Shown in pieces: positions 6,901 through 38,379 of a DNA stretch of 64,000 nucleotides. The stretch spans positions 111,349 to 175,348 of the forward strand of contig CASEWE010000009.1 in NCBI GenBank assembly GCA_949291555.1, written 5' to 3'. Source of the stretch: an uncultured Bacteroidales bacterium (lineage in GTDB: Bacteria; Bacteroidota; Bacteroidia; Bacteroidales; P3). The stretch's first letter is position 1, and each line of letters starts with the position of its first letter. Position numbers and translations under genes: made by a program. Below the pieces are notes generated by a model, which saw only the letters and a list, made by a program, of their open reading frames with translations, searched no databases and was not told the DNA's origin.

Positions 6901-7674
6901 ATGGGGGCGGACACCGCGTCACCCGGTGCCGGGAAAGTTCAGGAGAAAGCAAAAAAAGAAAGAATGGTTGTTTTTTTGATTCGGAAAATGGAAATGCGGT
7001 TTTGGCATGCAGGGAAGCCGGGATGCCGGAAAACGTTCGGGAATCCTTTTGCGAAAGCAGGTCTGCTGCCGCTGCTTCTTGCCTTGCTCTTGCCTGCCGC
7101 TTACGCTCAGGAAACGGAAGCGGATGCCAAGTTCGAGGAATTCAAGGGGCAGGTATCGGAATGGAGCCAGCGAAACAAGACGATCGTATGCGATTTCTTG
7201 CAGGAGAAGAAAGTCAGAGGCATCCGCGAGCCGGAAAGGCGGGAAGGGCGCTTCTTTTACGATAACGAGGGAAAGATCGCTTTGCTCTACGCGGAGCCCG
7301 CGGGCGACAAGGTGGTGATGGACGGGGATCGGTTCGTGGTGGTCAATGCCGGGAAAAGGATGGAAGCCACTTCGGCAAGCAATCCCATGCTGGGGCAGAT
7401 GTCGGGCTTGCTGCAGGGTTGCATGACCGGGAACCTTTCGGGCATAGGGAAGGGCTGGAACCACCGCCTGGAGGAAACCGGCGAGGTTTACCGTTTGGAA
7501 CTGTTGCCGCAGGGAAGGCAGCCGAAGCGGCCGAAATCTTTGACGTTGGTGTTCAGCAAGTCCGACATGACATTGGAAGAGTTGCGGATGGAGGAGGGGG
7601 AAGGCTTCATGACCCGCTATGTCTTCAAGGACAAGCAGCGGAACGTGGCGTTCGACCGTTCCGTGTTCGAATGA
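6901..7674 (+). CDS. LolA-like outer-membrane lipoprotein carrier family protein
   Basis: Signal peptide LLPLLLALLLPAAYAQ. The ~200-aa mature part has a LolA-like pattern (CDFLQEK...GRFFYDNEGKIALLYAEP...VVMDGDRFVV). Start is uncertain (ATG 6901, 6964 or 6988). Confidence 0.6.
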   Translation: MGADTASPGAGKVQEKAKKERMVVFLIRKMEMRFWHAGKPGCRKTFGNPFAKAGLLPLLLALLLPAAYAQETEADAKFEEFKGQVSEWSQRNKTIVCDFLQEKKVRGIREPERREGRFFYDNEGKIALLYAEPAGDKVVMDGDRFVVVNAGKRMEATSASNPMLGQMSGLLQGCMTGNLSGIGKGWNHRLEETGEVYRLELLPQGRQPKRPKSLTLVFSKSDMTLEELRMEEGEGFMTRYVFKDKQRNVAFDRSVFE

Positions 7675-7794
7675 ACCCGGAACAGGAGAGCCGCATCTGG
7701 CAGCAGCGTTGCATCCGGCAGCGGACCCGCAATCGGGGAAAGGCCGGACCGCCAAGGGGAATCGGACCCGGAAAGGGAAACAAGAGGAAAAAGC

Positions 7795-8157
7795 ATGGAA
7801 GAGATATTCCGCATGAAAAGCAAGGAGCGGCAGGAGGGCGGCTTCTGCTGCCAGGTCGGCATTTGCTGGGAGGCCGGTTTGTTCAAGGGGCATTTCCCGG
7901 GACAGCCCGTGGTGCCGGGGGTTTGCTTGCTCGGCCTGGTGAAAGAGGCTTTGGCGCAGGAGCTGGGAATGCCTTTGCGTTACCAGCAGATAAAGGACTG
8001 CAAGTTCCTGTTTCCGGTAACACCGGCTTTGCAGGGCGATTTGAGGCTGGCATGCAAGGTGGAGGGCCAGGACGGCCCGCTTTTGAAAGTGACGGCCTTG
8101 CTGGAAACGGCCGATAAGAAAGTGATGAAATTGAAAGCCTCTTTGGCAAGAAGTTGA
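7795..8157 (+). CDS. FabZ-like 3-hydroxyacyl-ACP dehydratase
   Basis: 120 aa. FabZ signature GHFPGQPVVPGV. Confidence 0.8.
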   Translation: MEEIFRMKSKERQEGGFCCQVGICWEAGLFKGHFPGQPVVPGVCLLGLVKEALAQELGMPLRYQQIKDCKFLFPVTPALQGDLRLACKVEGQDGPLLKVTALLETADKKVMKLKASLARS

Positions 8158-8162
8158 AAGCC

Positions 8163-9302
8163 ATGGAAAACAAGCTCTTGGTGGCAATCCCGGTTTACAA
8201 CAACCAGGCCACGGTGGCCCGTGTCGTTTCTAATGTGAAGGCTTGCGGCTTTCCGTTGGTGGTGGTCGACGATGGTTCCACCGACCGCACTTTGTCCGAG
8301 GCGCAAGGGCAGAAAGCGGTTTGCCTTTCCTATAAGCCCAACCGGGGCAAAGGCTATGCGATCCGGCAGGCTTTCGCCTATGCCGCCAAAGAGGGTTGCA
8401 CGCATGTGCTGACGATGGATGCGGACGGGCAGCACTACGCCTCGGACATTCCCGCTTTTGTGCGGGAAATGCAGGAAAATCCCGAGGCTTTGGTCATCGG
8501 GGCCCGGAATCTCCAAGCCGGCAACATGCCGGGAAAAAACACGTTCGCCAACCGGTTTTCCAATTTCTGGTACCGGCTCGAAACCGGGAAAAAGCTTTCC
8601 GACACCCAGTCGGGATTCCGGTTGTATCCTTTGCGCGGGCTCGAAGGCATGCGCTTCTTTTCCAAGCGTTATGCTTTCGAGACGGAAATCATCGTGAAGG
8701 CTTCCTGGCGGGGAATCCCGGTGAAGAACATCCCGATAGAGGTCTATTACCCGCCTAAAGGCGAATGGGTTTCCCATTTCAAGCCCTTCCGGGATTTTGC
8801 CCGGATCGGTTTCCTGAACGCTTGGCTGGTCATCGTGGCCTTGCTGCTCTATTACCCGTGGCGGTTCCTGCGGGCCTTGACCCGGGAGAACATCAAGCGG
8901 TTTGTCCGGGAGAACATTACCCGGACAGAGGATTCCAACCACAAGGTGGCCGCTTCGGTCGGGTTGGGCGTTTTTTTCGGCATTGTGCCCATCTGGGGTT
9001 ACCAGATGATTGCCGCCGGCCTGACGGCTCATTTTCTGAAGTTGAACAAGGTTCTGACGATACTGAGCTCGAACATCAGCATCCCGCCCATGATCCCGTT
9101 CATCTTGTACGGGAGCTTTTGCACGGGGGCATGGATACTGGGGCGGGATGCAAGGCTCGATTTTCAGGCCATCTCGTTTGAGAATGTTTATAAAGACTTG
9201 ATACAATACGTATTGGGCGCCATTGTCTTTGCGGTGGCCTGCGGGATTGCGGTTTACGGGCTCATGTACGTGGTCTTGTCGGCATGCAGGAGGAAAGTCT
9301 GA
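8163..9302 (+). CDS. family 2 glycosyltransferase with C-terminal DUF2062-like membrane domain
   Basis: LVAIPVYNNQATVARVV and VVVDDGSTDRT (GT2 N-terminus). The C-terminal ~130 aa is hydrophobic (VGLGVFFGIVPIWGYQMI...). ATG 8163 lies 5 nt after the upstream stop (track start 8154 is TTG). Confidence 0.8.
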   Translation: MENKLLVAIPVYNNQATVARVVSNVKACGFPLVVVDDGSTDRTLSEAQGQKAVCLSYKPNRGKGYAIRQAFAYAAKEGCTHVLTMDADGQHYASDIPAFVREMQENPEALVIGARNLQAGNMPGKNTFANRFSNFWYRLETGKKLSDTQSGFRLYPLRGLEGMRFFSKRYAFETEIIVKASWRGIPVKNIPIEVYYPPKGEWVSHFKPFRDFARIGFLNAWLVIVALLLYYPWRFLRALTRENIKRFVRENITRTEDSNHKVAASVGLGVFFGIVPIWGYQMIAAGLTAHFLKLNKVLTILSSNISIPPMIPFILYGSFCTGAWILGRDARLDFQAISFENVYKDLIQYVLGAIVFAVACGIAVYGLMYVVLSACRRKV

Positions 9303-33256: not shown

Positions 33257-33288
33257 GCATTTGCCGGAACTTTCCTTCCGGCAAATGC
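33257..33288 (-). terminator. strong hairpin downstream of the five-gene operon (no U-tract)
   Basis: Perfect 13-bp stem GCATTTGCCGGAA/TTCCGGCAAATGC with a 6-nt loop, and a second small CTTCCC/GGGAAG hairpin beside it. It starts about 35 nt after the stop at 33323. Confidence 0.4.
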
Positions 33289-33322: not shown

Positions 33323-33913
33323 TTATAACAAGCTTTCAGGCAGTTCCTGCTTGCAGAGGTTCTTCATTTCGAGCGTGTCTTCCTCCCGCAATCCCAACCC
33401 CATGGCATTGTCGAGCTCCTCTTGGTAAGAGGGCGAGATGTTGAGGCTTTTCCGGTTGAAGTAGTCGAGCTTGATGTAGGCCAGGAGATAATGGTAAATG
33501 GCCTTGTCCTCGATCATGATGGCCGCATCGAGGTATTCCATCATTTTGTTGATGGTGTCGCGGGGCGTAACGAAAGGCTTTTTCCCTTTCATCATGCAAA
33601 GGGCGGCGTAGAAGTACGTGTCGGGGTAGTCGAAGTTTTCTACCAAAGCCTTTTCGAACGCTTCGATGGCCTTGTCGTACAGGCCTAATTGCCAGTAGCA
33701 GATGGCAATCGAAGTGTTCAGTTCCCGATTGTCGGGATGTTCGGCCAAGGCTTTTTTGTAGGCGTTGGCGTACTTGTTCAGTTCTATGGGCTTGAACCCG
33801 CTGATAGACTGCGTGCTGGTTATGACAATGGGCCGATCGCAGGATTCGCAGACTTTGTCGCTCAGCGAAACCGGTGTACCGCAACCCGGGCAGGTGAGAT
33901 TGATGACTTCCAT
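33323..33913 (-). CDS. zinc-ribbon + TPR repeat protein
   Basis: 196 aa. N-terminal CPGCGTPVSLSDKVCESCDRP (two CxxC pairs). TPR-like helices follow (YANAYKKALAEHPDN..., LGLYDKAIEAFEKAL). Confidence 0.7.
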   Translation of the reverse strand: MEVINLTCPGCGTPVSLSDKVCESCDRPIVITSTQSISGFKPIELNKYANAYKKALAEHPDNRELNTSIAICYWQLGLYDKAIEAFEKALVENFDYPDTYFYAALCMMKGKKPFVTPRDTINKMMEYLDAAIMIEDKAIYHYLLAYIKLDYFNRKSLNISPSYQEELDNAMGLGLREEDTLEMKNLCKQELPESLL

Positions 33914-33921
33914 GTTCTGAT

Positions 33922-34680
33922 TTAATTTTTCGAAGCGTTTTTAATGAAATCGATTTGCGGGAGTGCGCTGGCAACCAGGCGATCCATTTTCTTGGTCATG
34001 TTTTCGAGTTCCTCGGCAGGCGCGTCCTCGGTCTGGTTGATCAGTTCCTCGCACTTGTCGAGCAAGGAGGCCAGCTGCGCGCCCAAGGTGGGATTCTGGC
34101 ATGCTTTGGGCGGAAGCGTGGAAATGGCGTTGGCCACAGGGCTCAGCCGGTTCAGGTATTGCATCCCGGCCGGGCGGGAGATGCCCTTTTCCACGCAGAT
34201 GGCTTGATAGCGGTTCACGAGCATGTCGGCCTTTTGCGAGAAGAAGGCGATCGACTTGAAATCTTCGTCGAGCTTCTCGACGCTTTCCTTGTAGTTGGTG
34301 TCCTGACGGCCCAATACCAGCGAGAGGATGATCCATAGCAGGGTGATGATCATCAGGCCGGCAATGTAGTACTTCATGGCCATGACCCCGCTCAGGGCAA
34401 TGGAGTAAAGCAGCATCCAAGCCAAGCCCGCCACGATGTAGTAGACCGCCACGATTCCGAAGACCGCGTAGAAAGGCGTGCTCAAGTCGTGGTTCTTCTT
34501 CTGGAACAGGACATTGATGTAGCCGAAAAAGATCCCTTCCAGAAGGAGCGTGTAAACCATGTTGGTGTAAAACAAGGCCCCCGCGTTTTCCGGGCGGAAA
34601 ATGAAAAACATCACAATGGTGCATGCCGCCACGATTGCCGGCAGCACGAAAGCGCTGATTATATTGATTTTTTCCCTCAT
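33922..34680 (-). CDS. polytopic membrane protein with C-terminal soluble helical domain (hypothetical)
   Basis: 252 aa from ATG 34680. About five predicted TM helices, then ~110 aa of charged helical sequence. Lies 9 nt upstream of the next gene. Confidence 0.65.
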   Translation of the reverse strand: MREKINIISAFVLPAIVAACTIVMFFIFRPENAGALFYTNMVYTLLLEGIFFGYINVLFQKKNHDLSTPFYAVFGIVAVYYIVAGLAWMLLYSIALSGVMAMKYYIAGLMIITLLWIILSLVLGRQDTNYKESVEKLDEDFKSIAFFSQKADMLVNRYQAICVEKGISRPAGMQYLNRLSPVANAISTLPPKACQNPTLGAQLASLLDKCEELINQTEDAPAEELENMTKKMDRLVASALPQIDFIKNASKN

Positions 34681-34714
34681 GATAGTGGTTGTTTGGGTTT
34701 CTGCATCGGGTTGC

Positions 34715-36013
34715 TTACAGGGCCGGGGGTGTCGGTGGAACCGGCGGAGCTGGCGGAACGGGGGGGGCTGGCGGCACATTCCCGAAGAGGGCTTGCATCT
34801 CCGGGCAATCCCCGGCTTTGAGCCATTGGGCCATTCCCGGCCTCCAGACCAGAGTTTCCCGCGTGATCTGGCCGCTGGCGATAAGCTGCTGCAAGTATTG
34901 GGCATCGAAAGGCCCGGCTTGCTGGTTGTTGATGATGGCATGGAACGATACCGGAGCGGGCGGAGGCGGGACTGCGCCAGGAGCAGGCGGGGGCGTTTGC
35001 GGGTATCCTCCCTGCGGGTATCCTCCTTGCGGGTAACCTTGCGGGTAGCCGCCTTGCGGGGGAGCGCCAGGATTCATGACATTGGCGATGTTGCCCATTT
35101 GCTGCCCGAAAGCGCCGCCGATGCCGAAGCCCATTCCCAGGCCCATGCCGGCACCCATTACCTGGCCGGCACCGCCTTCGTTCCGGGCCGCGCCTTCCAG
35201 AATATCGAACCGGCGTTCCTCCTGGTAAGTAAAGCCTTCCACTTTCCGGCTGGCAGCCCTTGCCTTGGCTTCCAAGACGGCCTTCGCGCCGGGATCATTC
35301 TGGTCGAAGTCGATGTTCGAGACCCGGAGATTGGTTATTTCGATGCCGTAGCGCGAAAATTCGGACGCGATCCGGTCTCGGACGAATTCGGAAACCGGGG
35401 TCAGGAAGCGCGCGATTTCCACGACGGAGAGCTTTTGTTCGTAGAGGAAAGTGCTGATGCTTTCCTTCAGGTTGGCCACGATATCGGAGCGGAACTGGTT
35501 GATGATGTCTTTCGTCGTGAAGAGGTGCAGCGTGCCCACCATCTTTCGGAACAGCGCCACGGCATCGACCACTTGGATCCCGTATTCCCCGTGCGAGCGC
35601 ACGTTGATGATGGCTTCCCCGAATTTGGTGTCTTCGATGGGGAGCGGTTCGGGCGTGCCGAATTTGAGGTTGCGCCGGGCGGTCTTGTTGACGAACCAGA
35701 CTTCCGCCGTGAAAGGCGTGCGTCCACCGAAAGGAAGGTTGATGAGTTTCTGGAGTATCGGGAGGTTGTTGGCATCCAAAGTCCGGGTTCCCGGGCCGAA
35801 GACATCGCACATCTGCCCGCCTTTCAAGAAAATGGCTTCCTGGCCTTCCCGGACGGTGAGCTGGGTGCCGGTACTGAGGTTGTCGTAGGGAAATTTCCAG
35901 ACCAGGTCGTCTTCTTCCCCGCTGTAGCGGACAACATCGATCATGCCTTTCCGTTCTTCGCCTTGGCCGTCGTAGGTCATGCCGTCGGTCCTGTTTTTAT
36001 TGAATAAGCCCAT
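34715..36013 (-). CDS. SPFH (stomatin/prohibitin/flotillin/HflKC)-domain protein, YdjI-like, with Pro/Gly-rich linker and GYF_2-like C-terminal domain
   Basis: 432 aa. The N-terminal ~290 aa resembles the YdjI/virion-core-like SPFH group (LVWKFPYDNLSTGTQLTVREGQEAIFLKGG..., PFTAEVWFVNK). Then GGYPQGYPQGGYPQGGYPQ, then FHAIINNQQAGPFDAQYLQQLIASGQITRETLVWRPGMAQWLKAGDCPEMQALF (GYF_2-like), then PPAPPVPPAPPVPPTPP. Confidence 0.8.
   Translation of the reverse strand: MGLFNKNRTDGMTYDGQGEERKGMIDVVRYSGEEDDLVWKFPYDNLSTGTQLTVREGQEAIFLKGGQMCDVFGPGTRTLDANNLPILQKLINLPFGGRTPFTAEVWFVNKTARRNLKFGTPEPLPIEDTKFGEAIINVRSHGEYGIQVVDAVALFRKMVGTLHLFTTKDIINQFRSDIVANLKESISTFLYEQKLSVVEIARFLTPVSEFVRDRIASEFSRYGIEITNLRVSNIDFDQNDPGAKAVLEAKARAASRKVEGFTYQEERRFDILEGAARNEGGAGQVMGAGMGLGMGFGIGGAFGQQMGNIANVMNPGAPPQGGYPQGYPQGGYPQGGYPQTPPPAPGAVPPPPAPVSFHAIINNQQAGPFDAQYLQQLIASGQITRETLVWRPGMAQWLKAGDCPEMQALFGNVPPAPPVPPAPPVPPTPPAL
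34997..35053 (-). repeat. coding tandem repeat G(G)YPQ x4
   Basis: The - strand reads ggcggctacccgcaa ggttacccgcaa ggaggatacccgcag ggaggatacccgcaa. Confidence 0.8.
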
Positions 36014-36034
36014 GACTTTTTGTATTTATGGATT

Positions 36035-36484
36035 TTACGGATAGTCTATTACGATTTCTTTTCCGGTGCATCGGCGCAGGAGGCGGATGCCGGTCTTGTA
36101 GCAGCCCACCCAGGCGCCGTATTTCTTTATGGCGAGGATGGCGTACTGGGAGCAGGTCGGAATCATGCAGCACCTTCTTCGCACATGGTCGGGCGCGTAA
36201 TGCTGGTAGAGTTTCACGGCCAGGATGAGCGTGACGCGGAGCGTCGACAGGAAGACAATGGCTTGCCCGAGGAAAAAGGTTAGCGGGAAGCCCAGTCTTT
36301 CATGAAAAAAGGAAATACCGGCAAACGGCAACCCCTTTTCGGCCAGGAACGCAAGTAGAAGAGAAGCGGTTTCCAAGGCCAGAATCCAACCCGCAAAATG
36401 CCATGCCCGTATGTCGGGCCGGGTTATTTCCCGCTTGGCGTAGTCTTCGAGCGAGGGGACGGCTGTCGGTATCTCCTTTTCCAC
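36035..36484 (-). CDS. YidD-like (membrane protein insertion efficiency factor family) domain protein with N-terminal TM extension
   Basis: 149 aa. C-terminal YQHYAPDHVRRRCCMIPTCSQYAILAIKKYGAWVGCYKTGIRLLRRC matches the YidD Cys-rich signature. The N-terminal ~95 aa adds hydrophobic helices. The only usable start is GTG 36484 (no in-frame ATG before the domain), 16 nt after the upstream stop. Confidence 0.65.
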   Translation of the reverse strand: MEKEIPTAVPSLEDYAKREITRPDIRAWHFAGWILALETASLLLAFLAEKGLPFAGISFFHERLGFPLTFFLGQAIVFLSTLRVTLILAVKLYQHYAPDHVRRRCCMIPTCSQYAILAIKKYGAWVGCYKTGIRLLRRCTGKEIVIDYP

Positions 36485-36499
36485 GGCAAAACGCCGGAC

Positions 36500-37186
36500 T
36501 TAGGCGGTTTTCTTTTCCCGCAGTTTGTTCTTCATGGCTTTCACGGCCTTTTCCGTGTAGTCGTTTTGTTCCATGGCGCAGTAGAAGGAGTCGCCCGGAA
36601 CGATGAGCTTGAAGCGGGTCGTGTTCACGTTCTCGAGGTTGTATTTGCCCGTCTTGGCGTTGAAAGTGGTGGGCACTTCAACCAAATCGCTCGAAGTGGA
36701 GAAGTTGGTGATATCCTTGTAGAAGTATTCTTCGGTGGATTCCTTCTTCCCGTCTTCGTCGGTGTGGAAGGTGTACTGGTAAACGTGGACTTGGGTTTCG
36801 GAGAAGAACAGCCAGGTGATCTGGTACATGGACGACCTCCAGATCCCGTCCCGTTTGCCTTTGCGGGCAAAGTACTGGCCTTTTTCAGGGAAGAGGTAGT
36901 TTTCCAGGTGGATGGGTTCGATTTCCTGGGTTTCGGATTCGTCCAGGCCTACCTTCTCCAAGGCTTTTTCACGGGAAGTGATGTTCGCGGCGATTTCCTG
37001 GACCATCTTGTCATAGGCGTCGTCCGACATGCGTTTTTTCAAGCAGCCGTCGTTGAGGAAATAACGCAAGGCGTCTTTCTGGGCCTTGGTCCTGCCGGCT
37101 CCGCGTTCGCGGACTTCCTTGGCATCGCGGGACATGACGAAATAGGCAATCGCGGCGATGACTACGATAATAATAACAAAAGCCAT
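36500..37186 (-). CDS. N-terminally anchored hypothetical protein
   Basis: 228 aa. TM helix MAFVIIIVVIAAIAYFV followed by a soluble domain (YQITWLFFSETQVHVYQYTFHTDEDGKKESTEEYFYKDITNF). First gene of the operon. Confidence 0.65.
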   Translation of the reverse strand: MAFVIIIVVIAAIAYFVMSRDAKEVRERGAGRTKAQKDALRYFLNDGCLKKRMSDDAYDKMVQEIAANITSREKALEKVGLDESETQEIEPIHLENYLFPEKGQYFARKGKRDGIWRSSMYQITWLFFSETQVHVYQYTFHTDEDGKKESTEEYFYKDITNFSTSSDLVEVPTTFNAKTGKYNLENVNTTRFKLIVPGDSFYCAMEQNDYTEKAVKAMKNKLREKKTA

Positions 37187-37428
37187 GATATTAGTTTTTT
37201 ATGTTTTGCCTACTTCGGTTTTGAGTCTCGTTCGGCTTATTCCGACTTCTTTTTTTGCTGGTCGTTATCAAACCGGTTTTCCCGCCTTGGCAAGGCAAGC
37301 AGGCTTTCCCTGCAAGGGAAAGAACGGCAATACCGGAATGGCTATTGGCAATGAGGCGGGAGCAAAGTATTCACGAAGAGGGATTTGTCGCGCAACCGCG
37401 CTCTTCAGCGCTTGCTCCACTGCACCAG

Positions 37429-37436
37429 CAAATATA
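37429..37436 (-). promoter_or_regulatory. possible -7 promoter box (TATATTTG on the - strand)
   Basis: + strand caaatata. It lies ~245 nt upstream of ATG 37186, implying a long leader, hence the low confidence. Confidence 0.25.
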
Positions 37437-37735
37437 GGCAAATGGAATGTATTTGCGCGATTAATTCGCATAAAAATTCATTCGCTTTGCTGGAGTACTT
37501 TCCCGTCGGATAAAGGAAATAAGCGTTTTTTTGCGGGTTTCAGCGTGTTTCTTGCCGGTTTGAACTTGATTGTTTAACCGGGAATGGGTAATTTTGAAAG
37601 CCGTTCCTCGAGGAAAGGGAAAGCGGGCTTCCCCCTTGCCGGGAAATTTTCCCGTCCGCGGGGCGAAGGGCATTCCCGCTGCCGCACGGGCAGCGGGGGA
37701 AGGAAAGATGGTATGACAAATTAAAATCCAGCACG

Positions 37736-38032
37736 ATGAAAGATTATGCACCTTACGCAGTAGCTTCTTTGGTATTAGGTATCTGTTCTTTGGTATTCGC
37801 CTGTTTGTTCGTGGGATTCGTTTGCGGGATCATAGGCTTGGTACTGGCCGTGAAAGGAACCCGGATTTATCGGATGAACCCTTCGGCTTATAGCGGTTAC
37901 GGCATGCTCAATGCGGGCAAGATCCTGTCGATTATCGGGATTGCGCTCGGCTTCATTTACGTGATATACGCCCTTGTGGTGGTTTTTATTTTGGGGGCCG
38001 GGCTTTTTTGCCTTCCTTTCATGACCATGTAG
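37736..38032 (+). CDS. small DUF4190-like membrane protein
   Basis: 98 aa with hydrophobic helices (VASLVLGICSLVFACLFVGFVCGIIGLVLAV; ILSIIGIALGFIYVIYALVVVFILG). Confidence 0.6.
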   Translation: MKDYAPYAVASLVLGICSLVFACLFVGFVCGIIGLVLAVKGTRIYRMNPSAYSGYGMLNAGKILSIIGIALGFIYVIYALVVVFILGAGLFCLPFMTM

Positions 38033-38379
38033 GAAACCTTCTGCCGGGCTTTTTCCCCCGGCAGGTAACGGTTTTCAACCCCGGAAGCGGGTTGCTGGAT
38101 TGCACCTTCAAGCAATTGACGGGTTTTTCTTGCCCCGGATGCGGCTTGCAGCGTTCGGCAAAGGCTCTTTTGCAAGCCGATTTCTTGGAATCGTTGCGGC
38201 TTTACCCCGCCTTGCTGCCTTTCCTGGCATCGGCGGGCTTGCTGCTTGCCTCGGTTGTCCGCCCTTGGCCTCCATTGCGCAAATGGGGGTTCAGGGGCGC
38301 GATCTTTTCGGCCGTGCTGGTCATCGGGCACTGGCTTTTCCTGTTGTTTTCTGAAATTTTCGGGGCGTTTCCCGGATAG
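38008..38379 (+). CDS. DUF2752-like membrane protein
   Basis: CTFKQLTGFSCPGCGLQRS motif followed by TM helices. The frame contains no ATG; TTG 38008 (overlapping the upstream gene by 25 nt) or a downstream TTG must be the start. Confidence 0.55.
   Translation: MPSFHDHVGNLLPGFFPRQVTVFNPGSGLLDCTFKQLTGFSCPGCGLQRSAKALLQADFLESLRLYPALLPFLASAGLLLASVVRPWPPLRKWGFRGAIFSAVLVIGHWLFLLFSEIFGAFPG

Follow-up and report, generated by a model that had tools for sequence, protein, structure and literature searches.

How does a bacterial SPFH protein (stomatin/prohibitin/flotillin/HflKC) find the membrane if it carries no anchor of its own? SPFH proteins are found in nearly all cells, and for anchorless ones in bacteria the question is answered for one Bacillus operon only: YdjI of B. 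subtilis has no hydrophobic anchor, depends on YdjG and YdjH for its membrane localisation and, once there, stabilises PspA foci. The same question is raised by a compact set of five genes in an uncultured Bacteroidales bacterium, located at positions 33,323 to 37,186 of a 64,000 nt stretch of contig CASEWE010000009.1 (assembly GCA_949291555.1). This stretch is referred to as the window, and all positions are counted along it. The genes are all on the minus strand and are numbered g1 to g5 in transcription order, g3 encoding the SPFH protein. We find that the five genes are one conserved syntenic unit. Moreover, profile comparisons suggest that g3 and the membrane protein g4 form a core which recurs across phyla.

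The initial annotation, made from the letters alone, had described five minus-strand genes separated by 15, 21, 34 and 8 nt. This observation is confirmed by the table of open reading frames (ORFs) and by the genes that were called independently on conspecific metagenome contigs. The genes are g1 (36500..37186, 228 aa), g2 (36035..36484, 149 aa with a GTG start), g3 (34715..36013, 432 aa), g4 (33922..34680, 252 aa) and g5 (33323..33913, 196 aa), and their lengths are identical in the callers' output for four independent metagenome contigs. For g4, the homologue alignment favours the start MREKINIIS over an upstream in-frame ATG. Hydropathy gives 1, 2, 0, 4 and 0 transmembrane (TM) segments for g1 to g5, respectively.

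The domains initially assigned to the five proteins are borne out by Pfam, NCBIfam and hydropathy. For g3 the assignment as a YdjI-type Band_7_1 protein without TM segment stands, but a C-terminal GYF_2 domain had been overlooked. The Band_7_1 domain (PF13421) covers aa 38-237 (nt 35303-35902, minus strand as all features of g3; 162.9 bits at a cut-off of 24, E 1e-47). It is followed by a Gly/Met-rich segment at aa ~279-308 (nt 35090-35179) that is nearly invariant in the homologue alignment, by a linker of Pro/Gln/Gly/Tyr repeats (nt 34949-35071), by the GYF_2 domain (PF14237) at aa 358-405 (nt 34799-34942; 67.9 bits at a cut-off of 25.8, E 6e-19) and by a Pro-rich tail (nt 34718-34777). Conserved Pro runs are found on either side of the GYF domain. 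No 19-residue window of g3 rises above the hydropathy threshold. In a sequence search of the PDB the GYF region matches a solved GYF domain (7z3c, E 3.7e-6), and no solved relative of the SPFH domain was found there. The GYPQG repeat in the linker varies by one unit between strains, such that g3 has 432 aa in the window and 437 aa in two related contigs (L082, with the counterpart at 7174-8487, and L084; L numbers denote individual loci), the remainder being 99% identical. A search of 5.8 billion proteins, a collection which does contain g1 and g5 in exact copies, gave no better match to g3 than one of 62% identity, probably because its low-complexity words crowded near-identical sequences from the candidate list.

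The protein encoded directly downstream, g4, consists of four TM helices and a helical bundle of ~125 aa that is predicted to be cytoplasmic. It has no Pfam family; its own family comprises 165 representatives at 50% identity. The AlphaFold2 model reaches an overall pLDDT of 66, with low confidence in the TM part and a pLDDT of 80-87 in the tail, and a Foldseek search with this low-confidence model returned generic helical bundles only. The last protein, g5, is soluble. It carries an N-terminal zinc ribbon of the type CxxC...CxxC at aa 6-25 (nt 33839-33898) and TPR repeats at aa ~44-104. The repeats are matched by TPR_19 (31.7 bits, cut-off 25) and by TPR_1 and TPR_2 at their own cut-offs, other TPR models staying below. 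Pfam matches to the ribbon are sub-threshold, and the motif CPGC...CESC is present.

The first protein, g1, starts with a TM helix (aa 1-19), followed by a helical linker, a seven-strand beta domain and a C-terminal helix cap in a PH-like layout. Its AlphaFold2 model has a pLDDT of 87 and a pTM of 0.82, and the best fold matches in the PDB (Foldseek) are the PH domains of Btk and DAPP1 (E 0.02, probability 0.97). The target-normalised TM-score of 0.39-0.46 is weak, the topology fits, and there is no match to the bPH family of Pfam. On the basis of the model we thus describe g1 as a TM helix with a PH-like domain and as nothing stronger. No family was found for g1 in Pfam, NCBIfam, PADLOC or PHROGs. 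Its homologues fall into 1093 clusters, the best matches being 53-62% identical. None of its relatives occurs among IMG/VR viral contigs or GenBank phages; hence the label 'Caudoviricetes' that one source gives to one homologue is probably a binning artefact.

In g2 two N-terminal TM helices (aa 30-48 and 64-82) precede a basic, K/R-rich and Cys-rich YidD-like domain (aa 85-139). The domain matches YidD PF01809 with E 3.4e-13 (49.6 bits, cut-off 27) and the equivalog model TIGR00278 with 48.5 bits (cut-off 40), and the g2 family keeps three Cys residues and a terminal DYP motif. A second YidD-like sequence is not found in the window. A PDB match of the g2 N-terminus to AcpS was judged spurious, and the PDB sequence search returned no solved relative for either g1 or the YidD domain of g2.

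Whether these five proteins belong together was evaluated by scanning one genome per GTDB species with the SPFH alignment and comparing g1, g2, g4 and g5 against the loci found. The order g1-g2-g3-g4-g5 recurs among GTDB species representatives of Prevotellaceae, Prevotella, Paraprevotella and Bacteroides and in two Bacteroidales metagenome-assembled genomes (MAGs); loci of the same order are L001, L003, L004, L006, L007 and L013. It is rearranged in another Bacteroidota MAG (L002). In a second, g1-centred scan of metagenomes the full order g1-g2-SPFH-4TM-g5 is found in 22 of 27 loci, the 27 being those with at least 3.6 kb of downstream sequence and including near-identical contigs of the same species. 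All five genes are recovered by tblastn in 10 of them. Another 12 show g1-g2-SPFH-gap-g5, and the gap holds an ORF of 223-231 aa which profile comparison identifies as a divergent g4 (probability 92-98%). Across all collections searched we count 39 distinct module loci (dereplicated at 90% g1 identity).

The surroundings do not travel with the module: the window and ten related loci share no flanking gene within 8 kb on either side. A gene order that recurs amid unrelated flanking genes is more than chance, and the unit is thus real. The initial annotation had regarded the five genes as one module and had named a lack of synteny in related genomes, or the assignment of its parts to unrelated characterised pathways, as what would speak against it. 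The neighbourhood analysis across Bacteroidota shows synteny, and the profile searches assign no part to an unrelated characterised pathway.

The operon is also carried by a cultured organism, Bacteroides finegoldii, where it corresponds to UHF62_RS03995-04020 and PGAP labels the genes as HTH regulator, hypothetical, 'yidD', SPFH, hypothetical and zinc-ribbon protein. All five genes occur in Ca. Symbiothrix, a Bacteroidales bacterium of the termite gut. An Azobacteroides MAG (L169) has g1, g3, g4 and g5, g2 being missing between g1 and the SPFH gene; at this locus genes with Abi_2 and PIN domains stand directly after the module (L169 7677-9169). Within Bacteroides the site is the same, beside pgeF-obgE-adk, in two species and several human-gut contigs, and the species of the window shows the same genomic context in four samples. 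A plasmid location was rejected. The sole plasmid match is L173 (NZ_OY725907.1, 'plasmid 5' of B. finegoldii TSDC17.2-1.1), a 108 kb record with the genes obgE, adk, hpt, rny, zapA and dinB whose mobility type is non-mobilizable; with obgE, adk and rny aboard it is probably a chromosomal fragment.

The module comes in several types. In type I, to which the window belongs, the SPFH protein has a GYF_2 tail. Type II is built from the same five families, with a SHOCT domain as SPFH tail and a divergent g4. Type III has the order g5-g1-g2, an ATPase of ~890 aa (HerA/DUF87), an acidic protein, a 150-aa protein, SPFH-SHOCT and the 4-TM partner (L128 6032-14574; L085 5001-10687; L116 2293-10125). The acidic protein is highly acidic with a weakly Peptidase_C39-like C-terminus, and the ATPase matches HerA models that are used, generically, in the annotation of defence systems. 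At L128 the neighbours of type III are an integrase, a recombinase, an Xre-type helix-turn-helix (HTH) gene and a CHAP-hydrolase gene, and the contig carries conjugative-element genes of Clostridia type. This copy appears to sit in a Firmicutes-type conjugative element, and its g1 has lost the TM helix. The neighbours in Paludibacter sp. 221 (L085) are a relaxase, MobC and an integrase.

In type IV separate g1 and g2 genes are absent. It consists of SPFH-GYF, g4 and a single protein of 585-613 aa whose N-terminus resembles g5 (zinc ribbon and TPR) and whose C-terminus aligns collinearly with g1, an acidic linker and two TM helices lying in between (L171 6987-8744; L018 5508-7349; L029 11185-13011). 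In hhalign the g5 part has a probability of 99.8% and the g1 part one of 87%. A joint action of g5 and g1 is predicted by this natural fusion. g2 is missing in some lineages and is thus not essential to the core.

Clustering the neighbours at the SPFH loci of the genome scan (at least 80 loci) yields two further operon classes. Class A (L008-L051), mainly in Firmicutes, has an SPFH gene, next to it the gene of a polytopic TM protein, and after these between one and four genes for TM proteins with a zinc ribbon at their end. Class B (L060-L079; Bacteroidota/Spirochaetes) consists of SPFH, a 4-TM protein, a protein of ~640 aa and proteins of ~310 aa. In profile-profile comparison g4 is homologous to the TM partner of class A (probability 97%, E 8e-11, 219 columns) and to that of class B (probability 96.5%, E 8e-10). 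The TM partner immediately follows the Band_7_1 gene in at least 33-36 Firmicutes loci and at least 13 class B loci. The ribbon of g5 aligns with the C-terminal ribbon of the class A family C1 (hhalign E 1.4e-11, 29 columns). A small zinc ribbon thus recurs at varying places: on a TM partner in class A, on the TPR protein in the module and, by published accounts, on both YdjI and YdjG in Bacillus.

Both classes resemble the module in two respects: their SPFH proteins are homologous to g3 and share its invariant Gly/Met-rich segment, and the gene directly downstream encodes a homologue of the 4-TM partner. They differ by lacking g1, g2 and the TPR protein and by having other accessory genes; for the partner families C1, C5 (~640 aa) and C6 (~310 aa) neither a Pfam model nor literature was found. 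The homology of g4 across the classes points to a cross-phylum core made of a soluble Band_7_1 SPFH protein and a 4-TM protein, the latter being, judged from these alignments, a general partner in three operon classes.

The non-coding DNA around the operon was inspected as well. Downstream, a hairpin had been noted at 33257-33288. It is indeed found, as a perfect 13-bp stem with a 6-nt loop (33257..33288, minus strand) starting 34 nt past the g5 stop, with a folding energy of -23.1 kcal/mol. A U-tract is absent 3' of the stem, and because a T run is absent the terminator scan omits the hairpin on the minus strand. It is a candidate for the transcript end. Scans for sigma-70 promoters and intrinsic terminators returned no more sites than shuffled sequence.

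Upstream of g1 lies an unusually long non-coding spacer of 549 nt (37187..37735, minus strand). Its sole Bacteroidetes-type -7 box candidate is TATATTTG at 37429-37436 (minus strand). Should TATATTTG work as a promoter, the leader would be ~235 nt long. The spacer is near-identical among strains, and the differences are indels of 1 nt and 3 nt, consistent with non-coding DNA. In many loci, including those of Bacteroides, Paraprevotella, Symbiothrix and the mobile-element variants, an Xre-type HTH gene occupies the position of the spacer; a homology search of the window gave no counterpart of this HTH gene. That the spacer contains a decayed copy of it was considered and rejected, since the best match has E 8 and the strain indels favour non-coding DNA. 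Rfam returned no real family, whether the locus was scanned permissively or the entire window with gathering thresholds; the sole match, a miRNA inside g5, is taken as chance. tRNA genes were not found in the window.

The genes around the operon encode an aminotransferase, riboflavin synthase, a DUF4190 protein and a MATE transporter. Two plus-strand ORFs run divergently from the operon: 37736-38032 encodes a 98-aa membrane protein of the DUF4190 type, and 38008-38379, which overlaps it, a 123-aa ORF with CxxC motifs and TM segments. They are not companions of the module in other genera. A gingipain-like DUF2436/Por_Secre_tail neighbour and the GC content of 56% point to an uncultured Bacteroidales.

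What could the module do? We propose, at about even odds (probability roughly 0.5), that the operon encodes a complex at the cytoplasmic face of the inner membrane, built around the soluble SPFH scaffold and having a structural or regulatory role. The five proteins of the window lack a catalytic domain, from which a structural or regulatory output follows. Their soluble parts are basic or without signal peptide, so the complex should face the cytoplasm. The SPFH tail is swappable (GYF_2, SHOCT or zinc ribbon), as would be expected of a protein that serves in assembly and not in catalysis. In this model g4 would bring the anchorless g3 to the membrane, probably by its cytosolic helical bundle. 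There g3 would oligomerise like other SPFH proteins, and its invariant Gly/Met-rich segment may partly enter the bilayer. Proline-rich sequences are the ligands of bacterial GYF domains, and in ~44% of the bacterial proteins with a GYF domain a zinc ribbon next to it acts as a switch (PMC11135422). The GYF_2 domain of g3 might likewise bind the flanking proline-rich stretches on neighbouring g3 subunits, or be gated by the ribbon of g5, and such a split switch of zinc ribbon, GYF domain and proline-rich sequence could control cross-linking of the scaffold. g5 and g1 would act as a single adaptor unit, accompanied by g2. The complex would likely sense or buffer membrane perturbation or corral client membrane proteins, as is to be compared with SamGHI/YdjGHI and with HflKC of E. 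coli.

Several observations weigh against such an assembly complex. Neither a PspA/ESCRT-III gene nor another known stress effector is linked to the module, and g2 is its least conserved member, being absent in L004, L169 and the fusion loci of type IV. The type III variant on mobile elements with its HerA-like ATPase and the few loci with Abi_2, PIN, Fic or integrase genes next to them would agree more readily with a conflict system than with housekeeping maintenance of the membrane, and the frequent upstream Xre-type regulator is also common in mobile and defence cassettes. The module could be a membrane conflict system (anti-phage, abortive infection or DNA exclusion), SPFH protein and anchors serving as sensor or platform. 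Its chromosomal five-gene form would then be a minimal or domesticated version of the mobile form, which adds the HerA-like ATPase and a putative peptidase. Besides the type III neighbours at L128 and L085 and the HerA matches, the Abi_2 and PIN genes next to the L169 module, an integrase next to L171 and a genomic context that differs among genera agree with this. However, the five proteins have zero matches in PADLOC-DB v2 at E <= 0.1, and their type II/III counterparts only generic ones to HerA and TPR; a PHROGs scan of the five gave nothing useful, and the absence of g1 relatives from viral contigs and phages also argues against it. The 137 flanking ORFs of the 39 loci are mostly housekeeping genes, with 2 Abi_2, 2 Fic and 3 integrases among them. 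Effector domains, be it nuclease, NADase, protease or another, are absent from types I and II, the site is stable within Bacteroides, and the GC content matches the host (55.3% for the operon, 56.4% for the window). We regard a conflict system as rather unlikely. To our knowledge, no described defence system uses an SPFH scaffold as platform; if the mobile variant is one, it would be the first such system built on it. A broader version, in which Band_7_1 SPFH plus 4-TM protein is a widespread, unrecognised class of membrane machines marked as conflict system by the type III additions, seems to us more doubtful.

A similarly doubtful reading starts from g2: the module would form a microdomain for insertion or quality control of membrane proteins, in which g2 aids YidC/Sec insertion and the SPFH protein fences the site as in HflKC-FtsH. 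g2 does exceed the YidD thresholds of Pfam and of the NCBIfam equivalog, and in the literature YidD figures among the factors at the Sec/YidC machinery, as one for the efficiency of membrane-protein insertion (PMC8082313). YidC, FtsH and HflKC are described as joint actors in membrane-protein quality control, and type III places an ATPase and a putative peptidase on the scaffold in a formally HflKC-FtsH-like manner. Against this stand the patchy presence of g2, the lack of a linked yidC, sec or ftsH gene in any locus examined and the lack of a nameable client protein; the YidD domain may moreover serve as a small Cys-rich, membrane-proximal interaction domain. The module might also be a true orthologue of SamGHI/YdjGHI whose PspA/IM30 partner has its gene at another place in the genome. 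Both systems share the Band_7_1 subfamily, a soluble SPFH protein co-encoded with membrane proteins, and a zinc ribbon. Yet the five proteins contain neither a TPM domain nor a double zinc ribbon with NTF2-like domain, the SPFH protein ends in GYF_2 where YdjI has a zinc ribbon, and pspA is absent from the window locus and from the 25 most frequent families of the flank survey. The gene order differs as well, and the Firmicutes relatives, with SPFH first and then the 4-TM gene, are not ydjGHI-like either. We consider orthology very improbable.

If the cytoplasmic-face assembly complex is correct, its dedicated 4-TM partner would represent a second and much more widespread solution for anchoring SPFH proteins across phyla. 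SPFH scaffolds with operon-encoded membrane partners are already known as a kind of system. New are the five-family set, the pan-phylum 4-TM partner, the TM-YidD paralogue, the PH-like anchored protein and the split of zinc ribbon and GYF domain. Four partner families that lack Pfam models are thereby added, one of them with a confident PH-like model. A literature search found no description of the module or its four partner families, in line with the initial view that no characterised equivalent is known in Bacteroidota, and in the library searched no publication joins YidD with SPFH or cites the protein accessions of B. finegoldii. The g5-g1 fusion predicts physical contact between both proteins, and the split arrangement of zinc ribbon, GYF domain and proline-rich sequence is open to direct in vitro testing. 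Since the module occurs in cultured B. finegoldii and in abundant Bacteroidales of gut and rumen, an envelope role (bile, antimicrobial peptides, phage) is genetically testable. With its function inferred, the module is a conserved and tractable unknown of gut Bacteroidales, which is in itself not surprising for an SPFH locus.

In its canonical form, YidD consists of a single domain, measures about 70-85 aa and has rnpA and yidC as gene neighbours. The C-terminal domain of g2 lies above the curated thresholds for it and keeps the conserved Cys, whereas g2 has 149 aa and two added TM helices and is encoded in an SPFH operon with no rnpA or yidC nearby. HflK/HflC-FtsH and SPFH-NfeD resemble the module in that an SPFH oligomer is encoded beside the membrane proteins it organises, and the ATPase and putative peptidase that type III joins to the scaffold add a likeness to HflKC-FtsH which is formal only. 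However, HflK/C, stomatin-type proteins and flotillins have their own TM or hairpin anchor, g3 has none, and the five proteins show no Pfam match to NfeD, flotillin or FtsH. The solved GYF domain 7z3c was deposited as 'Adventurous gliding motility protein X', and we take it to be that of GltJ. Like the GltJ switch of Myxococcus, the operon supplies a GYF_2 domain, a four-Cys zinc ribbon and a proline-rich sequence. In switch proteins of the GltJ type, ribbon and GYF domain adjoin in one polypeptide and a membrane receptor module follows. In the operon they are divided between g5 (ribbon) and the C-terminal part of the soluble SPFH protein g3 (GYF domain), g3 carries the proline-rich sequence in cis, and neither gliding genes nor homologues of MglA, MglB or AglZ take part.

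The closest concept is that of B. subtilis pspA-ydjGHI, since renamed samGHI, compared here by published domain descriptions, not sequences. YdjI is called a band-7 protein in published accounts and is presumably a member of Pfam Band_7_1. Both SPFH proteins lack a TM segment and have a low-complexity region followed by a small C-terminal domain, both genes stand in an operon with membrane proteins, and a zinc ribbon occurs somewhere in both systems. In YdjI the band-7 domain is combined with a zinc ribbon at the C-terminus; YdjG joins a pair of zinc ribbons to an NTF2-like domain and a TM segment, and YdjH has a TPM domain (PMC11237479). The SPFH tail of the module is GYF_2 instead, and the gene order is different. 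Its partners are a 4-TM protein, a soluble zinc-ribbon-TPR protein, a TM plus PH-like and a TM plus YidD-like protein, among which YdjG and YdjH have no counterpart: g5 has a single zinc ribbon, TPR and no TM segment, and neither TPM_phosphatase nor an NTF2-like domain is matched by the five proteins at E <= 0.1. Of the initial claim that the locus has the same three part types as pspA-ydjGHI, the SPFH domain and a generic small zinc ribbon thus remain, and the domain sets of YdjG and YdjH are absent. The accompanying remark that a PspA/IM30 gene is missing is right, as neither the five proteins nor the neighbouring genes give a PspA match. Classes A and B, equally uncharacterised, are closer relatives of the module than YdjGHI. 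Taken together, these comparisons suggest that homology to YdjGHI does not carry over to the module but that the concept does: a soluble SPFH protein is placed on the membrane by the partners encoded in its operon.

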